From assembly GCA_963779415.1 (NCBI GenBank), contig CAVZYA010000001.1:896001-960000 (forward strand): 64,000 nucleotides of DNA, given 5' to 3'. Positions 9,785 through 19,149 of this stretch are shown one piece after another. Position numbers and translations under genes: made by a program. The first letter of the stretch is position 1. Each line of letters starts with the position of its first letter. Below the pieces are notes generated by a model that was given only the letters and a program-made list of their open reading frames with translations, searched no databases and had not been told where the DNA came from. The DNA comes from an uncultured Acidobacteriota bacterium (GTDB lineage: Bacteria; Acidobacteriota; Thermoanaerobaculia; UBA5066).

Positions 9785-10495
9785 TCAGCCGGCTTTCGCG
9801 AGGTTTTCCGCGGCGAACTCCCAGTTGACCAGCTTCTCGAGATACGCGGTGATGTAGTCGGGGCGCCTGTTCTGCCAGTCCAGGTAGTAGGCATGCTCCC
9901 AGACGTCCATCGTCAGGAGCGGCGTGGCGGCGGTCGTGAGCGGCGTTTCGGCGTTCGGAGTCTTTGCGCACTTCAACTTTCCGCCGTCGAGAACGAGCCA
10001 GGCCCAGCCGCTGCCGAACTGGGTCACCCCGGTCGTCGCGAACTCCTTCTTGAAGTTCTCGAGCCCGCCGAAGTCCTTCTCGATCATCTCCTTCAGCTTC
10101 CCCGACGGAGAGCCGCCCCCCTTGGGCCTCATGCTCTTCCAGTAGAAGGTGTGGTTCCAGACCTGCGCCGCGTTGTTGAAGATCCCGGCCTTGTCGGGCT
10201 TCCCCGCGACGGCCCTGACGATCTTCTCGAGGGGCAGGTCGGCCAGCTCGGTCCCGGCGATCAGCTTGTTCGTGTTGTCCACGTATGCCTTGTGGTGCTT
10301 GCCGTAGTGGAAGGAGATCGTGTTCGCAGAGATCTCCGGGGCGAGGGCGTTGTCGGAGTACGGGAGAGGCGGAAGTTCGATCATCGAGGCTCCTTTCAGG
10401 ATTGCCGGCGAGCCGAGAACCACCGCCGCGGCGCCGGTCGCCACGACGAGGTCGCGTCGTGTGAGCATAGAGGATTCGCTCCGGCCGTTGGTCAT
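9785..10495 (-). CDS. sodB: Fe superoxide dismutase with twin-arginine (Tat) signal peptide
   Basis: HYGKHH, FNNAAQVWNHTFYW (Fe-type), QFGSGW, DVWEHAYY; N-terminal TRRDLV plus hydrophobic stretch. Confidence 0.92.
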   Translation of the reverse strand: MTNGRSESSMLTRRDLVVATGAAAVVLGSPAILKGASMIELPPLPYSDNALAPEISANTISFHYGKHHKAYVDNTNKLIAGTELADLPLEKIVRAVAGKPDKAGIFNNAAQVWNHTFYWKSMRPKGGGSPSGKLKEMIEKDFGGLENFKKEFATTGVTQFGSGWAWLVLDGGKLKCAKTPNAETPLTTAATPLLTMDVWEHAYYLDWQNRRPDYITAYLEKLVNWEFAAENLAKAG

Positions 10496-10573: not shown

Positions 10574-13012
10574 TCAGAAGAGAAACGTGAGCTTCCCGGC
10601 GACCGTCCGGGGCGGGATGACGTGGGTTCCGCCGAAGACGGACTGGAAATTATAGAGACCCTGAACGTCGAAGGCGTTGAGGAGGTCGACCTGAAGCTCG
10701 AGCGGAAGGCCATACTTCTGGAGGCCCGCGCCGATGGAAAAGTTCCAGATCGTCCGCGACTTCACGCGCTGAGGGTCCTCGTTGAAGTTGATGTAGGGAG
10801 CGGCATAGGCCGTGTCGGGGCTCGAGAGAACGTCCTGGATCGTCCCGGCGTCCGTGACGAGGCCCGAATCGTACCGCTGCGTCATGCCGACCCAGACCCC
10901 CGTGCTCCCGAAGTTGTAGAAGAGGCCCACCTGCTCCTGGATGTCCTGGTCGTGGTCGATGACGAAGCAACCGCCTTCGAGAGACGACAGAAAGTCGGCC
11001 GTCAGGAAGAGGCCGCCGACGTTCGGATTGCAATACACCGCGTGCACGTGTCCGATCGACGCGTACCCGTAAAGGCCGCCGAGGACGGGGGCCAGGTCGA
11101 GCCGGACGTTCCAGCCGTTCAGCTTCCCGCTCGCGAAGTTGAGAGGGAAGACGATGCCCGTATTGAAGAACTGGTCCTGATCGGCGGCGTTCGTCACGTT
11201 CCGGTACCAGTACGAGACGTCCAGCCGCAGCTTCGTCCCGATCCCCTGCTGGACCCCGACGTTGTAGACGTCGTGCCGCTCCGAGACGTTGTAGAGGTCG
11301 CCCCCCCCTAGCTGCGGCGCCTCCTGGATCTGGGGCGGGGCGATCGACGCCGCCTGGGGTGACGAGGAGAGAAGGATGTTCTCGTACTCCGGCGTAATGA
11401 ACATCCGGTCGTAGGAAGCCCGGAAGACGGTGTTCGTGGCCCCCAGGAAATAGGCGACGCCGACGCGAGGCTGGAGCTGGTGCTCGGATTCGAAGAGATA
11501 GTTGTGGTCGAACCGGATGCCGACATTCGCGGTCAGGTCGTTCCACCGGATGCTGTCCTGGAGAAATCCGGCGACGTAAGCGCCCGTCCTCGATCCCGTG
11601 AAGTAGAAGGGGGAGCCTCCCCGCGTTCCGTCGTACGGGGCGAGGTTCGGGTTGTAGCTCTCCGACGCCGGGTCGTTGTAGGCCGGGTCGGTCACGAGGA
11701 AGGAAAACTGCTCCGAGATCGGAAAGCGCTTCGCCTGGATGCCGGCCTTGAATTCGTTGATCCCGATCGTCTTCGACAGGGCGACGTTGAATCCCTGGTT
11801 CTCGAGCGACCGGTTCTGGTCCGCCTGGACAGGGGTGTCGAAGGACGACCCGTAGAGGATCAGGCGGTTGTCCCGCGCGTAGAGCTGTCCCTCCAGCACC
11901 CAGGCGTCCCCGAAGACGTGCTGGTAGCCGAGGTTGAGGTTCCAGTCGTTCGAGACCACCTGGTCGCTCTGCCCGGCCAGCTCCTGGGACGGGAGGTTCG
12001 TGACGTCGCGCTCCGTCCGCCCGAGGTTGGCGCTGAGCCTCCAGCTGTCCGATGCGCTCGCCGAGACCGAATCGAGGCGCACGAAGCCGCGTACCGCGCT
12101 TCCCGTGTTGTGGGAGTTGTCGAACGAGACTGGATCGAGAAACCGGTCGGAGCGCGAAGCGTCCGCGTCGGCGAACCAGCCGAACCGGCTGTCGCCCCCT
12201 CCGGCCGAGACCGAGCCGACTCCCGTCCCGAACGAGGCGCCTCCCAGGGAAACCTCGCCCCTGACTCCGTTGGTCCCGAGGCCCGACCGGGTCGTCAGGT
12301 TGATGACGCCATTCGCCTTCTCTCCGTATTCCGCCGGGATCCCCCCCGTGATGACCTCGACGCCCTCGGCGACTCCGGGATTGAGGGAGTTCGAGAACGT
12401 GATGCCGATCTGGTCTCCGATCGGCTGGCCGTCGACGACGAGGAGCTGCTGCGAGTGTCCTCCCTGGAAGTGGTACCGCCCGTTCTCGTCCTGCGAGAAG
12501 CCGGGGGTCGACGTCACGAGCGACTCGAAGGCCCGGCTCGGCATTCCGCCCGGGGACCGCCGGATGAGCGACTTGTCGATGTCCACGTGCGTGGACGGGT
12601 CGTCGGTCTCCAGCGCGACCGGCTCCTTCTCGGCCTCGACCGTGGTCGATGCCGTGGCCGAGAGGCTCAGGACGATGTCCCGGACCACCGGTGCGGAGCC
12701 TCTCACGTCCAGATCGGTGTGATAGGGAGCGAAGCCGTCCAGAGAGGCGGTGAGGTGATAGGGGTTGGCGGGGACGTTGTAGAGGAGGTAGGCACCGTCC
12801 AGCCCGGACGTCGCCTGCTGGCGATACCCGGTGATGTCATTCGTCAGGGCGATGCTCACGCCGGGGAGCGGCATGCCGTCGGGGCCGATGACGTGCCCCC
12901 GGACCCGGCCGGCAACGGCGGTCATTGCAGAGACGGGACGGGAGACGACGACGGCAACCAAGAGAAAGACGAGCGCAAACGCGACGCGGCGAGCGATGTC
13001 TCTGGGCCTCAT
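10574..13012 (-). CDS. TonB-dependent receptor with N-terminal carboxypeptidase-regulatory-like domain
   Basis: SD AAGGAGG then ATG 13012; signal peptide; GRVRGHVIGPDG..LPGVSI; plug VDGQPIGD..GGIPAEYG..GVINLTTRSG; C-terminal PRT..LTFLF. Confidence 0.9.
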   Translation of the reverse strand: MRPRDIARRVAFALVFLLVAVVVSRPVSAMTAVAGRVRGHVIGPDGMPLPGVSIALTNDITGYRQQATSGLDGAYLLYNVPANPYHLTASLDGFAPYHTDLDVRGSAPVVRDIVLSLSATASTTVEAEKEPVALETDDPSTHVDIDKSLIRRSPGGMPSRAFESLVTSTPGFSQDENGRYHFQGGHSQQLLVVDGQPIGDQIGITFSNSLNPGVAEGVEVITGGIPAEYGEKANGVINLTTRSGLGTNGVRGEVSLGGASFGTGVGSVSAGGGDSRFGWFADADASRSDRFLDPVSFDNSHNTGSAVRGFVRLDSVSASASDSWRLSANLGRTERDVTNLPSQELAGQSDQVVSNDWNLNLGYQHVFGDAWVLEGQLYARDNRLILYGSSFDTPVQADQNRSLENQGFNVALSKTIGINEFKAGIQAKRFPISEQFSFLVTDPAYNDPASESYNPNLAPYDGTRGGSPFYFTGSRTGAYVAGFLQDSIRWNDLTANVGIRFDHNYLFESEHQLQPRVGVAYFLGATNTVFRASYDRMFITPEYENILLSSSPQAASIAPPQIQEAPQLGGGDLYNVSERHDVYNVGVQQGIGTKLRLDVSYWYRNVTNAADQDQFFNTGIVFPLNFASGKLNGWNVRLDLAPVLGGLYGYASIGHVHAVYCNPNVGGLFLTADFLSSLEGGCFVIDHDQDIQEQVGLFYNFGSTGVWVGMTQRYDSGLVTDAGTIQDVLSSPDTAYAAPYINFNEDPQRVKSRTIWNFSIGAGLQKYGLPLELQVDLLNAFDVQGLYNFQSVFGGTHVIPPRTVAGKLTFLF

Positions 13013-13023
13013 GGGGATTCGAG

Positions 13024-13111
13024 CCTCCTTCTGATGAATCAGGCAGGAAAGGAGACCGCGGCAGGCGGCCTCCCGGACCACGGACGACGGGCGTCTCTAC
13101 GCGGCCGGGAG
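13024..13111 (-). promoter_or_regulatory. Putative translational attenuator (segments 1:2, 2:3, 3:SD) between leader 2 and the TonB receptor
   Basis: mRNA segment 1 CUCCCGGCCGCG (13111-13100); segment 2 CGUGGUCCGGGAGGCCGC (13082-13065); segment 3 GCGGUCUCCUUU (13059-13048); SD AAGGAGG (13030-13024); pairings are mutually exclusive. Confidence 0.6.
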
Positions 13112-13375
13112 ACGGGGCGGGGAACGCCCCGTGAGATCCGGAAGGGACGGCCGGGCGACAGGGGTCTCTGCAGACGGCACGACCCCGGGCACCGAGCCCG
13201 GCTGAGCGACGATTGTCGGACCGGCGGCACCTTCGTGGGCGCTCGCGAGAGCGCACGCGAGGCACGCTCCGTCCTGCGTTCCCGTCGCCGCAGCGTGGGC
13301 GTGAAGCCCTGCAAGCGCTGCCAGGAAGAGCGCGAGAAGCCCCGCGGAGAGGAGGCGACGCGCGAGTCCCCTCAT
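13097..13375 (-). CDS. Leader peptide 2: DUF2946/CruR/CutF-like uORF
   Basis: 92 aa: signal peptide, HAH, ACLAC, C-terminal GRSPPRLPAA; paralogue at 16470-16748. Confidence 0.82.
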   Translation of the reverse strand: MRGLARRLLSAGLLALFLAALAGLHAHAAATGTQDGACLACALASAHEGAAGPTIVAQPGSVPGVVPSAETPVARPSLPDLTGRSPPRLPAA

Positions 13376-13439
13376 GGGTTCGGGAATTCTGGCAAGTGCG
13401 TCCTAGTCATCCGTCTCGTGCCCCGACAATTCGGTTTCC

Positions 13440-15893
13440 CTACTGCGGGAGGAGCGTCGCCGGGTCGTTCGTCCCGTTGTTGACGAGCGAGGCGAATCCC
13501 GTGAAGGTCGCTCCCGGAGTCGTCGTCCAGACGACGAGGGTCCCCGCCGATCCTTTTGGCGCCCCGACGCCCGTCGTGACGACCCGGTTGATCTGCGTCA
13601 TCCCGAGCTGCGCGAGTGTCACGCTCTGCGTCGTTCCGAGCTGCGTCCCGTCGTCGGCGTACAGGGCGTAACCGACGGTGATCGGGTAGGGGGTGACCCC
13701 TCCGTCCGGCGGCCCGTTCACGAGGACGAGGTTGGTCCTCACCTTGTCATCCTCGCGGACTCCCACGATCGCCACATTCGTCCCGGGCCGGAACCACGAC
13801 GCACTCGGGATCCCCGGCACGCTCTGGCCGAAGCGCCCCGGCCCGGATGGCGCCGGGGTCGTCGTCACGCTGTCGATGGCGAGACCCGGCGAGCTGCTCG
13901 TGACGAGGATGGCGCCGAAGTCCCGGTTCGACGAAAGGCCGAAGACAGAGCCGAGGACGTCGCGGAACGTGTAAGCCGTCTGCGGGTTCAGCGAGTAGCT
14001 CTTCGTCGGTCCCGTGCTTCCGTCGGGCGTCCCGAACGCGAGATAGCGCAGCGTCACGTTCGCCGACGTGGAGCCGACGTTCGCGAGGAAGAAGTCGGTG
14101 GTGTACATGGCCGGGGCTGCCACCGTGCCGCCGGCGGACCGGGCGACCGAGGGGACGATGAAGCTGGCGGCGCCGCTTCCGCCGAACCCGGTCGAGGCGA
14201 AGAGAGTCGCCGGGTCGTTCGTCCCGAGATTGTCGAGGAGGGAGGCGAAGGCCGTGAAGGCGCCCCCCGAGGTCGTCGTCGAGAGCGTGATCGTCGCGTT
14301 GGACGTGCTGCGGGTCCCCGTGATCGTCTGGATGACTCGGGGGAGCTGGGTCATCTCCAGCGGCTGCAGCGTCGGCGGCGTCAGCGTCCCGAGGTTCGCG
14401 CCGTTGTCGTCCCGGAGGCCGATCAGAACGTCGAGCGGCTGGTCGGTGGTGTTGACGAGGACGAGGTTCGTCCGGGCGGTGGAATCCTCACGGACTCCGG
14501 CGATCGCTCCCGGGGAGCCGGGCGAGATGAGCTGGGACGCCATCACCGCCGGAACGCTCTGGCCGAAGGCTCCCGTGCCGTCGGGCGTCGGGGTCGTCGT
14601 GACGCTCGAGACCTTCAGCGACGCCGAATTCGCGCTGACCCGGATCGCGCCGTAGTTGTTCCCCGTGAGGCCGAAAAGAGACGAGAGGACGTCCGCGTAG
14701 GTGAGGGCGTCCCCCGGGGCCACCGTCGCCGTCAGCTCGGGGCCCGAGGTCCCGTCCCCGTCGTGGCCGAGAAACTTGAATATCATGGTCGCGTCCGAGG
14801 ACCCTTCGTTCGCGACGAAGAGGTCCGTCGTGAAAAACGCCGGGGCGGCCGGCGTGCCGCCGGCCGTATGGGCGACCGATGCGACGTAGTAGTACGTCGG
14901 ACCGATCGGCGACGAGCCCCACCAGCCGATGTCCCGGAGGGCGTTCGGCGTGATGTCGACCCCGATCGGGAGATCGTCGTTGATGACCGGCTCCATCAGG
15001 ATGTCCGGGACGCACGACGTGTCCCAGTGCGACACGTTCGAGCCCGCCTGCACCGGGTTCGGCGCGTAGAGGAGCATCTGCCCGGCCGTGTTCATCCCCT
15101 TTCGCTGGACGAGGTACGCCGCCCCCGCCGCGTTCGCGGACGGGCCGGTCCAGACGAGGTTCCCCGTGTTGATCGCCGAAGCTTGCCGCTCGGCATCCGT
15201 CGCCATGTCGTTCCAGCTCTTCTTCGCCGTCGTGTCGTAGACGAAGGCGTCGAAAATGTCGGGCTGCGGCTGGTCTTGACAGCAGAACGTACCGGTCGTC
15301 TCGTCCGCGAGAGAGAGGAAGCCGAGGCCGTGGGCCGTCTCGTGAAGAGCGACCGTCAGGAGGTTGATGTCGCCGGAAGGGGTGTTCGTGTCGAAGCCGT
15401 AATAAAAATTGGTTCCGCTCAGGCAGCCGGACTGCCCCAGCATGCTGTTGAACTGCGTCGTCATGTATCCGACGTACCCTGCTTCGTAGGGGGGCTCGAG
15501 GTCGTAGCCCGCGAGCTGGCTCGCCTCGGCCACGACGTACCAGACGCCCGGGAGGACTCCGTCGGCGAAATCGGACTCGACGTAGTTCGGCGACGTCCCT
15601 CCGAGGACAGCCGTCGTCGATGAGCACGAGAGGGACTCGAAAGAGGCCCAAACGGTGATGTTGACGTTCCCGGGAAGGATGCCGCCCCAGATATCGGCGG
15701 CCTTTTGCAGCACGTTCATCCGCTGCTGGCCGATCGTCGTCCCGGGGTTTCCGCCGACGGGCGTGGCCGGTGTCGGGTCGTTCAGTCCCTGACCGGCGGC
15801 GTCCTTGTTGACGATCGTGATCGTCACGGCATGGGCGGGGAGGACGGCGAGAAAGACGAGAAGGACCGCGAGAAGAAGCGTCGTCCGGCGCAT
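13440..15893 (-). CDS. Secreted HEXXH zinc metallopeptidase with two tandem copies of an uncharacterised C-terminal domain
   Basis: Signal peptide; GLNDPTPATPVGGNPGTTIGQQR; LHETAHGLGF; SHWD..LMEP; repeats begin VASVAH..TTDLFVAN and VPSVAR..TTDFFLAN, and both end in GTNDPATL. Confidence 0.82.
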   Translation of the reverse strand: MRRTTLLLAVLLVFLAVLPAHAVTITIVNKDAAGQGLNDPTPATPVGGNPGTTIGQQRMNVLQKAADIWGGILPGNVNITVWASFESLSCSSTTAVLGGTSPNYVESDFADGVLPGVWYVVAEASQLAGYDLEPPYEAGYVGYMTTQFNSMLGQSGCLSGTNFYYGFDTNTPSGDINLLTVALHETAHGLGFLSLADETTGTFCCQDQPQPDIFDAFVYDTTAKKSWNDMATDAERQASAINTGNLVWTGPSANAAGAAYLVQRKGMNTAGQMLLYAPNPVQAGSNVSHWDTSCVPDILMEPVINDDLPIGVDITPNALRDIGWWGSSPIGPTYYYVASVAHTAGGTPAAPAFFTTDLFVANEGSSDATMIFKFLGHDGDGTSGPELTATVAPGDALTYADVLSSLFGLTGNNYGAIRVSANSASLKVSSVTTTPTPDGTGAFGQSVPAVMASQLISPGSPGAIAGVREDSTARTNLVLVNTTDQPLDVLIGLRDDNGANLGTLTPPTLQPLEMTQLPRVIQTITGTRSTSNATITLSTTTSGGAFTAFASLLDNLGTNDPATLFASTGFGGSGAASFIVPSVARSAGGTVAAPAMYTTDFFLANVGSTSANVTLRYLAFGTPDGSTGPTKSYSLNPQTAYTFRDVLGSVFGLSSNRDFGAILVTSSSPGLAIDSVTTTPAPSGPGRFGQSVPGIPSASWFRPGTNVAIVGVREDDKVRTNLVLVNGPPDGGVTPYPITVGYALYADDGTQLGTTQSVTLAQLGMTQINRVVTTGVGAPKGSAGTLVVWTTTPGATFTGFASLVNNGTNDPATLLPQ

Positions 15894-15897
15894 CTCG

Positions 15898-16383
15898 TCA
15901 CTTCTCCTCGGCGGCGGGCTTGGCCGCGGGGGCGGGGGCTTTCAGGGCTTCGCCGACCTTCGAAGCCGGCACGCACTCCTCGGAGAGCGTTCCGTCCGCG
16001 TTCTTCCGGACGACGGAATAACGGAAGTACTCGGGGCCTAGCTGCGCCCGCCTCCGCCCCGACGGGAGAGTTTCGACGGTCGTCGTCCGGACCCCCTTCG
16101 AGAAGGCCGGCTTGATCGCCGCCCCCGCGGCGCGAAGAGCCTCGATCTCCTTCGCCGTCGGCGCGCGAAGCTTCCCGGTGTCCGGATCCCTCACCACGAT
16201 CATCCGCGGTGCGGTCTTGCCGGCAGGCTCGGCGGCCGCCGGGGACTTCGGCGCGTCGCAGGCTGGCACAGTTTCCTTCGTGTCTCCTGCGAGAGCGCCA
16301 GTCGAGGCGAATAGAGCCCCCGCGAGAACCACCAATCCCGTCGGAGAAATCTTCATGCGGCAGGTACTGTTCCGGAGTGTCAT
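15898..16383 (-). CDS. Small secreted partner protein (DPxTGxLRAPT motif; post-PEP-CTERM-like domain)
   Basis: SD AAGGAGG then ATG 16383; signal peptide; VVRDPDTGKLRAPTAKE; YSVVRKNADGTLSEECV; stop 4 nt before the peptidase ATG. Confidence 0.72.
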   Translation of the reverse strand: MTLRNSTCRMKISPTGLVVLAGALFASTGALAGDTKETVPACDAPKSPAAAEPAGKTAPRMIVVRDPDTGKLRAPTAKEIEALRAAGAAIKPAFSKGVRTTTVETLPSGRRRAQLGPEYFRYSVVRKNADGTLSEECVPASKVGEALKAPAPAAKPAAEEK

Positions 16384-16393
16384 GACCTTCGGG

Positions 16394-16484
16394 CCTCCTT
16401 CCGAATGACGAATCAGGGAGGGAGACCGCAGCAGGCGGCCTCCCGGACCACGGACGACGACGACCGTCTCTACGCGGCCGGGAG
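16394..16484 (-). promoter_or_regulatory. Putative translational attenuator, copy 2
   Basis: Segment 1 16484-16473 and segment 2 16452-16435 identical to copy 1; segment 3 GCGGUCUCCCUCCC 16429-16416; SD 16400-16394; UGA-UUCG-UCA cap in the 3:4 hairpin. Confidence 0.6.
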
Positions 16485-16748
16485 GAAAGGCGGGGAACGC
16501 CCCGTCAGATCCGGGAGGGAGGGCCGGGCGGGAGGAAGATCGGCGGAAGGTACGACCCCGGGCACCGAGTCCGGTTGGGGGACGATTGTCGGGCCGGTGG
16601 CACCCTCGTGGGCGCTCGCGAGAGCACACGCGAGGCAAGATCCGTCCTCCCCTCCCACCGTCGCCGCATGGACATGAAGCCCAGCAAGCGCCGTCAGGAA
16701 GAGCGCGAGAAGCCCCGCGGTGAGTAAGCGGCGCCCGAATCCCCTCAT
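16470..16748 (-). CDS. Leader peptide 3: DUF2946/CruR/CutF-like uORF
   Basis: 92 aa: signal peptide, HVH, SCLAC, GRSPPFLPAA; preceded by extended -10 TGcTAGACT (16767-16759). Confidence 0.82.
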   Translation of the reverse strand: MRGFGRRLLTAGLLALFLTALAGLHVHAATVGGEDGSCLACALASAHEGATGPTIVPQPDSVPGVVPSADLPPARPSLPDLTGRSPPFLPAA

Positions 16749-16775
16749 GGGTGACAGAAGTCTAGCAAACGGGTC

Positions 16776-17582
16776 TCAGTCCCCCCTCTGGCGACGCGAG
16801 AGAAGAAAGGCCGCGACGAAGAGAACGGCCCCGAGGAGGATGATGGCCGCCCCCGACGCGACGTTCAGGGCGACGGAGAGGAAGAGGCCCCCGAGGACCA
16901 TGACGAGGGCCGCGCCGATGGAGCCCGAGAGGAGCCCGGGCCACCGGTCGAAGAGGGTCCGTGCGGTGGCCCCCGGAAGGACGAGGAGGGCCGCGACGAG
17001 GAGGATGCCGACGACCTTCAGCGCGACGACGACCGCGAGCGAGATCAGGACGAGGACGAGGAGGCGCATCGCCCCGACGTTCACGCCGGCGGCCCGGGCG
17101 CCGTCCTCGTCCACGGAGGCGAGGAGAAGCGGCCGGAACCAGGCCGCGAAGACCACGAGGACGGCGAGCGCGGTGCCGACGAGGATCGCGAGGTCGGCGG
17201 GGCTGACCGTCAGGATGTTCCCGAACATCAGGCCGAAAAGGTCGACGTTCGTCTTCACGAAGCCGAGGGCCACGACGCCGACAGCCATCGCCGCCACCGT
17301 GGACACGCCGATGGCGGCGTCCTCCGAGACTCCCGAAGCTTCCGACGCGTGGGCCGTCGCCAGCGCCACGACGAGCGCGGCGACGAGCGCTCCGGGGCCG
17401 GGCGGGAGGCCCGCCAGCGTCGCCACGGCCACGCCTCCGAAGGCCGCATGCGCCACCCCCGATCCCGCGAAGGCGAGCCGCCGGAGGACGACGAAGAAGG
17501 AAAGCGCCCCGCAGAGGACCGCCGCCACGACGCCCGCGACGAGCGCCCGCTGGAAGAACGGGTAGGCGAGGAACTCGATCAC
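16776..17582 (-). CDS. znuB: Metal ABC transporter permease (ZnuB-like)
   Basis: FFQRALVAG, FVVLRRLAFAGSGVAHAAFGG, LMFGNIL, KVVGILLVAALLVLP. Confidence 0.88.
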   Translation of the reverse strand: MIEFLAYPFFQRALVAGVVAAVLCGALSFFVVLRRLAFAGSGVAHAAFGGVAVATLAGLPPGPGALVAALVVALATAHASEASGVSEDAAIGVSTVAAMAVGVVALGFVKTNVDLFGLMFGNILTVSPADLAILVGTALAVLVVFAAWFRPLLLASVDEDGARAAGVNVGAMRLLVLVLISLAVVVALKVVGILLVAALLVLPGATARTLFDRWPGLLSGSIGAALVMVLGGLFLSVALNVASGAAIILLGAVLFVAAFLLSRRQRGD

Positions 17583-18247
17583 CGCGGTGCCTCCACCGGC
17601 TCCTCCGTGACGACCCCGTCCACACGGAAGAGGGCGTCCGCCCCCCCCATCGAATCCGTGTCGTGGGAGACGAAGAGAATGGTCCGCCCAGCCGCCGTCT
17701 CCTCGGCGATGACGCGGCGAAGGGTCATGAGCCCGTTCGAGTCGAGGGCCGTGTCGGGCTCGTCGAGGACGAGCATCGCGGGGCTTCCCGCGAGCGCCCT
17801 CGCGAGCAGAACCCTCTGGCGCTGCCCGCCGGAGAGCTTCCCCACCGGGCGGTCGAGCGTCTCCGCAGGAAGACCAGCCCGGAGGAGGGCGGCGCGGGCT
17901 TCGCCCCGCGCCTCGTCGCGGCGCCCGAACCCCGGGCGCGGGTCGAGCGAGAGGGCCACGAGATCGACGCCGGAGACGGGAGCCAGCGCCGAGAGGGTCG
18001 AGCGCTGCGAGAGATATCCGACGCGGGGACGAGGGACCTCGCGTCCCGATTCGTCCACGAAAACGACCCGGCCCGAATCGGCCGCGATCGCACCGACGAG
18101 AACGCGAACGAGCGTCGTCTTCCCCCCGCCGTTCGGCCCGACGAGGGCGGTCCGGACGCCGGGAGGAACCGAGAAGGAGACGTCCCGGAGGACCGGACGC
18201 CCGCCGAGCGACGCCGTGATTCCCTCGAAACGGATGCCGACTCTCAA
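17579..18247 (-). CDS. znuC: Metal ABC transporter ATP-binding protein (ZnuC-like)
   Basis: TTG 18247 overlaps the binding-protein stop, SD GGAGG; GPNGGGKTT, LSGGQRQRVLLARAL, LDEP, VSHD. Confidence 0.88.
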   Translation of the reverse strand: MRVGIRFEGITASLGGRPVLRDVSFSVPPGVRTALVGPNGGGKTTLVRVLVGAIAADSGRVVFVDESGREVPRPRVGYLSQRSTLSALAPVSGVDLVALSLDPRPGFGRRDEARGEARAALLRAGLPAETLDRPVGKLSGGQRQRVLLARALAGSPAMLVLDEPDTALDSNGLMTLRRVIAEETAAGRTILFVSHDTDSMGGADALFRVDGVVTEEPVEAPR

Positions 18248-19149
18248 CGGACCTCCAGCCCGTCCCGGAATGCCCGCGCGTTGAAGAGGAGAAGCTCCTC
18301 GTATCCGAGGCGCCCCGGCAGGCCGCCGACCGGGTCGACCATCTCGACCCTGAGCCCCGCCTCGTCCGCGACGACGCGGGCCGCCTCGAGCGGAAACTGC
18401 GGCTCCGTGAAGAGCGTCCGGAGCCCCTCTCGCCGTGCCGCCAGGACGAGCGACTGGATCTCCCGCGGCGACGGCTCGCGTCCCGGCACCGGCTCGATGG
18501 AGCCCGCCGGCTTCAGCCCATAGCGATCGGCGAAGTAGGCCCAGGCGTTGTGCGCCGTGACGATGGACGATCCCGCGACGGGGCGGAGTGTCCGCGAGAT
18601 CTCGGCGTCGAGGCGCGAAAGCTCCGCCGAGAAGGCTGCCGCGCGGCCGCGGTAGCCCGCGGCGCCCGCCGGGTCGATTGCCGACAGCTCCCCGGCCAGC
18701 GCGGGGAGGATCTTCGCGACGAGAGGGGGCGAGAGCCACCAGTGAGGATCGTGGCCGAGGACGCCGTCCTCGTCCTCGCCGTGCGCCTCGCCTTCGCCCA
18801 GGGCCACGATCCCGGCCGCTTTCCCGCCGTCGAACAGCTTCGCGTCCGAGGCGCACGCCGCCGCCAGCTTCGCAACCCATCCGTCGTACCCCGCCCCGAC
18901 GGTCACGACGAGCCGCGCCCGCGCCACGAGGCGCACCTCCTTCGGAGTCGGCTCGAAGACGTGCGGGGAGACTCCCGGCGGAACGATCGTCCGGACCTTC
19001 CACCCGGGCCCCGCCACGTGCGCCACGACATCCGCGAGCGGCGAGATCGTCGCCGCGGCGGCCAGTGCCTCCGGCGCGGGCGCCCGCCCGGCGCAGGCGG
19101 CGATCAGGAGGGCGCCGAGGGAGGAGGCGAGCCGGGGCATCCTCCGCAT
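18244..19149 (-). CDS. znuA: Metal ABC substrate-binding lipoprotein (ZnuA-like); start may be 19140
   Basis: Lipobox LIAAC; SPHVFEP; His/acidic loop EGEAHGEDED..HDPHWW; AHNAWAYF. Confidence 0.88.
   Translation of the reverse strand: MRRMPRLASSLGALLIAACAGRAPAPEALAAAATISPLADVVAHVAGPGWKVRTIVPPGVSPHVFEPTPKEVRLVARARLVVTVGAGYDGWVAKLAAACASDAKLFDGGKAAGIVALGEGEAHGEDEDGVLGHDPHWWLSPPLVAKILPALAGELSAIDPAGAAGYRGRAAAFSAELSRLDAEISRTLRPVAGSSIVTAHNAWAYFADRYGLKPAGSIEPVPGREPSPREIQSLVLAARREGLRTLFTEPQFPLEAARVVADEAGLRVEMVDPVGGLPGRLGYEELLLFNARAFRDGLEVR

Follow-up and report, generated by a model that had tools for sequence, protein, structure and literature searches.

How might a ribosome held at the end of a small, exported, metal-binding leader peptide control a gene whose Shine-Dalgarno sequence (SD) lies further downstream? 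To our knowledge, just two mechanisms of metal-sensing leader peptides have been worked out, Rho termination for CruR and melting of a stem-loop for CutF, and both concern Proteobacteria and copper. The question is raised by a locus in a 64,000-nt stretch of an uncultured Acidobacteriota bacterium of the class Thermoanaerobaculia (assembly GCA_963779415.1, contig CAVZYA010000001.1, positions 896,001 to 960,000; hereafter the window), in which a short open reading frame (ORF), leader 2, precedes a TonB-dependent receptor gene, with an intergenic region (IGR) of 84 nt between the leader stop and the receptor ATG. A preliminary description, made from the letters alone, had proposed a four-segment translational attenuator: the last leader codons (segment 1), an SD-like sequence (segment 2), an anti-SD sequence (segment 3) and the SD itself, set by a ribosome stalled at an RSPP motif. 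That interpretation is partly supported by the analysis reported here. We tentatively propose, with the balance of evidence close to even, that the intergenic RNA reads out a nascent-peptide sensor of the CruR/CutF type through an ermC-like relay.

The structural observation is confirmed: all the helices that had been listed are present on the minus strand (Table 1), and they are stronger than chance. Segment 1 begins one codon past RSPP (13111-13100, against 13126-13115 for the motif) and pairs as CUCCCGGCCGCG with CGUGGUCCGGGAG of segment 2 in 12 bp with one bulged U (helix 1:2). An overlapping part of segment 2, GGGAGGCCGC, forms 10 bp, two of them G-U, with GCGGUCUCCU of segment 3 around the loop CUGCC (helix 2:3), and CUCCUU of segment 3 can pair with AAGGAG of the SD across the cap CUGA-UUCA-UCAG (3:SD). 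The minimum-free-energy (MFE) fold of 13000-13135 (minus) contains helix 1:2 and is matched in stability by none of 200 shuffles (z = -3.1); the corresponding region behind a paralogous leader in the same window (leader 1) has an unremarkable MFE fold (z -1.3, 20/200 shuffles as stable). The duplex between leader tail and IGR (tail:IGR) reaches -27.3 kcal/mol in the reported copy, compared with -16.2 +/- 2.6 kcal/mol for shuffled IGRs (z -4.3, 0/200), and local energies are about -20 to -21 kcal/mol for helix 2:3 and -14.2 kcal/mol for the extended 3:SD pairing. The exact 22-nt segment-2 string occurs in the 4.36-Mb genome solely at the two leader-linked sites. All folding results are equilibrium folds, with the co-transcriptional kinetics that are important in such relays outside their scope. 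Long-range pairs in whole-fragment folds varied with the cut site, and we therefore used varied ends, a sliding footprint, a two-state test and a 30S landing-site test. A known Rfam RNA family was rejected as an identity for the element, given that no covariance model matches at either of the IGRs; the two hits obtained lie elsewhere (E 0.42 and E 0.79) and fall far short of their gathering scores. The leader 2 codons T-G-R and P-P-R (13131-13112, minus) are also predicted to form a hairpin, ACGGGGCG / UUCC / CCGCCCCGU, that spans the arrest site, and the paralog has a weaker form of it.

Both helix 1:2 and helix 2:3 need the GGGAG part of segment 2 and so exclude each other; which of them forms is predicted to depend on where the ribosome stands. 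With the first arrest proline codon in the P-site, segment 1 extends from +9 to +20, counted from the first base of that codon, and a footprint edge at +13 to +16 covers CUCCC(GG), its 5' half. When a 30-nt ribosome footprint was moved codon by codon and pair probabilities were computed, the mean before P-site codon -1/0 was ~0.5-0.7 for 2:3 (inner pairs only) and ~0.7-0.9 for 1:2; from that codon on, 2:3 rises to 0.93-0.98 and 1:2 drops from 0.89 to 0.33 and then to 0, being gone from P-site codon 0 or +1 onward. Hence both the proposed masking of segment 1 by a ribosome at RSPP, by geometry and by the sliding-footprint fold, and the ensuing formation of helix 2:3, with P(2:3) going from 0.55 to 0.98 at the arrest prolines, hold up in these models. 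The paralog flips at the equivalent position of the scan. In silico, the change from 1:2 to 2:3 is real and position-specific.

A G+C-rich hairpin such as 2:3, followed in the reported copy by UUUCCU, could also be read as the intrinsic terminator of a trp-type transcription attenuator. This is highly improbable: the polarity would be off during arrest, opposite to that of CruR, and the U-run after the hairpin is absent in the paralog and most relatives. An intrinsic terminator is unlikely in any case, since a scan of both strands of 12800-17000 gave 0 terminator-like sites (shuffles 2.3 +/- 1.6).

The layout recurs in the window paralog and 20 related loci. We assembled 54 distinct loci and tested the tail:IGR duplex in 42; z is below -2 in 15 of these 42, and reaches -3 or lower in three sequence-distinct subgroups. 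Among 20 loci that bear the module, 15 have 2:3 as their strongest IGR hairpin, overlapping helix 1:2 by 6-12 nt of segment 2, and the remaining five have 3:SD. One relative, L012, keeps the topology with unrelated arms (CCCGGCCGCG / CGCGGCCGGGGG / CUCCCGGC). When the 2:3 core was aligned over 15 sequences, 97.1% of cells were paired, compared with 57-70% for slid partners. Changes on both sides occur in 3/7 pairs (equalled by 11/500 shuffles), and the covariation score of 0.320, versus 0.233, is reached by 0/500 shuffles. Two MAFFT alignments place segments 2 and 3 one column off between subgroups and were left out of the pair counts; helix 1:2 was therefore judged by shuffles and a swap test, not by column counts. 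Between the two window paralogs, identity runs longest over segment 1 with the stop codon (20/20) and over the region of segment 2 (29/29); the leader coding sequence is 82-85% identical and the stretch from segment 3 to the SD 65%.

For the paralog and many relatives, folding also supports the output step, the release of the SD. In the two-state test the paralog SD becomes 5.2 kcal/mol easier to open, and in the ON state its opening costs 0-2.5 kcal/mol; a full mask, too, is predicted to release the SD of the paralog. Locking segment 3 away opens the SD by at least 3.5 kcal/mol in 8/14 loci, the paralog among them, and the 30S landing site opens by at least 3 kcal/mol in 11/20 loci when everything 5' is masked in full and in 8/20 under a single footprint. 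Among type-B loci, 7/8 open by at least 3 kcal/mol even with the single footprint, and predicted SD opening in the paralog and most type-B relatives amounts to 3-11 kcal/mol.

Several results weigh against the relay, above all in the reported copy. Occlusion of segment 1 had been expected to free the SD there, and this is not borne out: constrained folds give a difference in opening energy (ddG) of ~0-1 kcal/mol. The mean ddG over 16 fragment choices is 0.9 kcal/mol (range -0.5 to 2.2), the 30-nt footprint gives 6.5 kcal/mol free versus 6.4 kcal/mol stalled, the two-state test 7.0 kcal/mol with segment 3 free versus 6.2 kcal/mol with it locked, and the 30S landing site 16.7 kcal/mol versus 16.7 or 16.4 kcal/mol (ddG 0.1-0.3 kcal/mol). 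Accessibility stays the same in these folds because the SD, when segment 3 is engaged elsewhere, pairs instead with a second pyrimidine tract (13049-13041); this tract corresponds to a 4-nt difference between the two window copies. The other three type-A loci (L055, L054 and L003) likewise show SD opening of <1 kcal/mol or negative. Under a single footprint the paralog, too, opens by only ~1 kcal/mol, because upstream C-rich leader codons are still able to pair with the SD. More widely, 27/42 loci have no significant tail:IGR helix, and the arms of 2:3 were picked by eye, which biases the observed pair count upward. In the swap test, cognate 1:2 duplexes average -22.4 kcal/mol, and those with partners exchanged between groups -20.0 kcal/mol; helix 1:2 thus has low partner specificity and is kept mostly by sequence conservation. 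Covariation, which had been suggested as a check, is thus modest in the 2:3 core but weak in helix 1:2. Of the four-segment, ermC/trp-like logic, the mutual exclusivity, the masking by the footprint and the flip stand, but SD release in the reported copy does not.

An SD that is not predicted to open in the reported copy speaks for CruR-type Rho-dependent attenuation, in which the arrested ribosome would shield a C-rich loading site at the leader 3' end; once arrest is relieved, Rho would terminate before or within the TonB receptor gene, and the helices would be pause or structural elements or an added translational layer. We regard this route as unlikely, though it keeps a footing because the genome encodes Rho (715 bits, above the family cut-off) and the leader 3' end is rich in C and poor in G. 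Over positions -96 to -6 relative to the stop, both leaders have a C fraction of 0.48-0.53 and a G fraction of 0.22-0.25, resembling the C>G region that PMC9426467 describes for cruR, and the leader architecture and downstream TonB receptor match CruR as well. However, the C-rich stretch measures just ~60-90 nt and lies partly inside predicted helices, and the IGR is about half as long as the 162 nt of cruR. A purely Rho-based route also has no need of a covarying SD-mimic/anti-SD hairpin, and the SD opening predicted in the paralog and type-B relatives argues against it.

The low partner specificity, in turn, would suit a reading with no switch at all. Helix 1:2 would then obstruct the mRNA entrance and strengthen the pause at RSPP, or the hairpins would serve mRNA stability or processing, and the likeness of the two window copies would come from recent duplication or gene conversion. 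Helix 1:2 does start 9 nt past the P-site codon, where the mRNA enters the ribosome, and the two copies are 82-91% identical throughout. We nevertheless consider this reading quite improbable, given that the complementarity of tail, SD mimic, anti-SD and SD recurs in sequence-distinct subgroups such as that of L012, that 2:3 has changes on both sides and that the flip is position-specific.

The leader peptide itself is, by its sequence features, a member of an unannotated Thermoanaerobaculia family of CruR/CutF-like build. Profile searches found it in 25/401 genomes of its class; it is concentrated in one family-level clade, with 34/63 genomes, among them 28/29 of genus g4 and 2/7 of the window's own genus. 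A large protein collection holds 210 relatives, and among the 120 listed none has a Pfam domain and all source names given are 'hypothetical protein'. C38 and C41 are invariant in alignments of 12 and of 31 leaders, and RSPP is likewise invariant. Among 44 distinct leaders the arrest motif is RSPP in 40 and RAPP in 4, is followed by 2-5 residues, and lies 42 residues from the CxxC motif in 41 leaders, 43 in one and 47 in two. Leader 2 ends in GRSPPRLPAA and, by inspection of the sequence, starts with a basic n-region and a hydrophobic stretch, MRGLARRLLSAGLLALFLAALAGLHAHA.

No significant relationship to DUF2946, the family of CruR, was detected. The Pfam model PF11162 (DUF2946) matches 0/2 window leaders at E <= 0.1 and gives a single match, at E = 3, among 12 family members; a single-sequence comparison with DUF2946 gave E 0.2, which is not significant. 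An hhalign comparison of 31 leaders with 18 genuine DUF2946 proteins aligned 18 columns around CxxC at E = 0.13 and a probability of 0.5%, a weak negative because the aligned DUF2946 proteins span little diversity (57-90% identity to the first of them). Pfam DUF2946 is present in 1/301 Acidobacteriota genomes sampled.

Codon usage at the arrest site is skewed. Across 54 loci (L001-L088), the rare codon CCU encodes the two prolines of the R(S/A)PP arrest motif in 64/108 cases (0.59), compared with 95/1499 (0.06) of the remaining Pro codons of leaders and downstream ORFs. An anti-SD pentamer (CCUCC, CUCCU or UCCUC) falls within the R-S-P-P-x codons in 39/54 loci, where a direct two-segment switch could arise from pairing of the arrest site with the downstream SD; neither window copy has such a pentamer at its arrest site (13120-13115 and 16493-16488). 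A genome of the same genus (G006) has a weak leader-like match (L013) with four in-frame TGA codons. The genes downstream of ten relatives' leaders encode a TonB receptor in three cases and an OEP efflux protein in one, and have no Pfam match in six. The efflux case is L015, whose leader (C-terminus PSPA) precedes an outer-membrane efflux protein (OEP/TolC-like) and not an uptake receptor; L037 has a similar tail (LSPA) and IGR. The leader cassette may serve either polarity of metal traffic.

Taken together, the proposed sensor would work as follows. The leader would be exported and carries, in its 92 amino acids, a putative metal-binding CxxC motif 42 residues before RSPP, which the available parts of PMC12992588 describe as arrest-permissive and under-represented in proteomes; the same source maps CruR arrest to two Pro codons in the P and A sites. 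On free mRNA, segment 1, the leader's final four codons, would pair with the SD-like segment 2. A ribosome held at RSPP would cover the 5' half of segment 1, so that, in the folds, the partner of segment 2 becomes segment 3, the anti-SD. For the paralog and most relatives this would take the anti-SD off the real SD and turn on downstream translation, an ermC-like relay. The reported copy has the relay, but its second pyrimidine tract is predicted to hold the SD in a weak hairpin either way; it would therefore be a blunted switch or act via another output. By analogy with CruR, metal would relieve the arrest and the gene would be on when metal is scarce, as the preliminary description had also supposed.

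Table 1. Features of the leader 2 locus, its paralog and neighbouring genes, in window positions.
Feature	Position	Strand	Remarks
Leader 2 ORF, 92 aa (amino acids)	13097..13375	minus	hydrophobic export-like N-terminus, CLAC, 42-residue spacer, RSPP, tail RLPAA, stop
Leader 2 CxxC codons (C38..C41)	13253..13264	minus	invariant across leader family
Leader 2 RSPP codons CGU UCC CCG CCC	13115..13126	minus	presumed arrest site; arrest capability as described in the available parts of PMC12992588
Segment 1, CUCCCGGCCGCG	13100..13111	minus	leader 2's final four sense codons
Leader 2 stop UAG	13099-13097	minus	
Segment 2 region	13065..13082	minus	CGUGGUCCGGGAG (13082-13070) pairs with segment 1; overlapping SD-like GGGAGGCCGC (13074-13065) pairs with segment 3
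Loop CUGCC of hairpin 2:3	13060-13064	minus	
Segment 3, anti-SD, GCGGUCUCCU	13050..13059	minus	
Second pyrimidine tract, UUCCUGCCU	13041..13049	minus	predicted to hold SD paired once segment 3 is locked away
Cap hairpin CUGA-UUCA-UCAG	13031..13042	minus	
SD AAGGAGG of TonB receptor gene	13024..13030	minus	
TonB-dependent receptor gene	10574..13012	minus	CarboxypepD_reg and Plug domains; ATG 13012-13010
Paralogous leader 1 ORF	16470..16748	minus	82% amino acid identity to leader 2; C-terminus GRSPPFLPAA
Paralogous module	16381..16484	minus	segment 1 16484-16473, segment 2 16452-16435, segment 3 16429-16420
Paralogous module SD and start	SD 16400-16394, ATG 16383-16381	minus	
Importer substrate-binding protein	18244-19149	minus	
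Importer permease	16776-17582	minus	ATPase also encoded in importer
Exported Fe/Mn superoxide dismutase	9785-10495	minus	N-terminal extension; directly downstream of TonB receptor gene

The two leaders in the window are the only copies in the genome. Both lie downstream of an importer of the AztABC/ZnuABC type (cluster A-I; 16776-19149, minus), which adjoins leader 1 on its upstream side. Together with the superoxide dismutase, this neighbourhood suggests a zinc or manganese economy, not a copper one, and the importer suggests that the metal sensed is zinc or manganese rather than copper. Leader 1 is followed by a 161-aa protein with a post-PEP-CTERM-1 domain and an 817-aa protein (13440-16383, minus); the latter has a weak match to NF038122 family metalloproteases and contains the motif HETAHGLGF. 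Neither leader is preceded by a recognisable SD (13376-13400 and 16749-16775, minus), and a promoter scan upstream of the two leaders found no sigma-70-like promoter. They have CACCC/AACCC-AUG-AGGGG in common, along with a motif, TTGCYAGAMTTC, ~12-25 nt 5' of the ATG, a possible operator or promoter element. The receptor frame is open upstream as far as a GTG within segment 2 (13079-13081, minus), which we judged not to be the receptor start: it is the ATG at 13012 that has the strong SD and opens a signal-peptide-like N-terminus.

A relay behind a CruR/CutF-like leader is undescribed in our full-text literature searches, which did not cover the supplements of PMC9973294 (Figs S5-S7, lists) and PMC9426467 (Table S1), where acidobacterial or RSPP-type clusters may be included. 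The peptide design of CruR and CutF is found here in a family outside Pfam, in a phylum with DUF2946 in a single sampled genome, joined to a different RNA read-out and next to a zinc/manganese-type importer. In its widest form, which we think rather unlikely as a whole, the proposal is that CxxC-42-RSPP leaders, not detectably related to DUF2946, couple metal-modulated arrest to an ermC-style relay, serve as a portable cassette before both uptake (TonB receptor) and efflux (OEP) genes, and sense zinc or manganese rather than copper, which would make them a convergent, purely translational counterpart of CruR. Should the switch be confirmed, nascent-chain metal sensing would reach new lineages and possibly new metals, and the loci would form a natural series of strong (type-B loci, paralog) and blunted (reported copy) switch variants.

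In ermC- and cat-type attenuators, a stalled ribosome masks segment 1, helix 2:3 forms and segment 4, the SD, is freed; their leaders are short cytoplasmic peptides on which an antibiotic stalls the ribosome. The four-segment logic is alike, but here RSPP itself would cause the stall and an exported nascent chain that binds metal would modulate it, and release of segment 4 is not predicted in the reported copy.

CruR (Bordetella pertussis Bp2923, DUF2946) sits upstream of the TonB-dependent transporter BfrG/CrtA, acts via Rho and has an IGR of 162 nt; its design is CxxC, ~45 residues (45 +/- 1-2), RAPP and three further residues, according to the available parts of PMC9426467. Against that account, the locus described here is alike in its small, putatively exported ORF, invariant CxxC, R-x-P-P near the C-terminus, fixed motif spacing, position directly upstream of a TonB-dependent receptor and structured, non-coupling IGR. 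It differs in that the window leaders have neither a Pfam DUF2946 match nor significant profile-profile similarity, in RSPP instead of RAPP, a spacing of 42 instead of 45 and an IGR of 84 instead of 162 nt, and in a proposed relay of SD mimic, anti-SD and SD in place of Rho, with neighbours that suggest zinc or manganese, not copper.

For CutF of Rhodobacter capsulatus, the parts of PMC9973294 and 10.1101/2025.02.05.636593 available describe a CxxxC motif, a proline-rich tail and a single stem-loop melted by the nearby stalled ribosome, with copper turning on a detoxifying oxidase. As with CutF, a stalled, exported, metal-binding nascent peptide would here control the accessibility of a downstream SD via mRNA structure, but ~90 nt separate this SD from the arrest site, and two intermediate segments would have to relay the effect. 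The monitoring substrates of RAPP type, ApdA/ApdP and SecM, have the same class of C-terminal arrest motif; unlike the leaders described here, they monitor Sec/YidC machinery encoded downstream and, in the available parts of PMC12992588, are described with no CxxC sensor.

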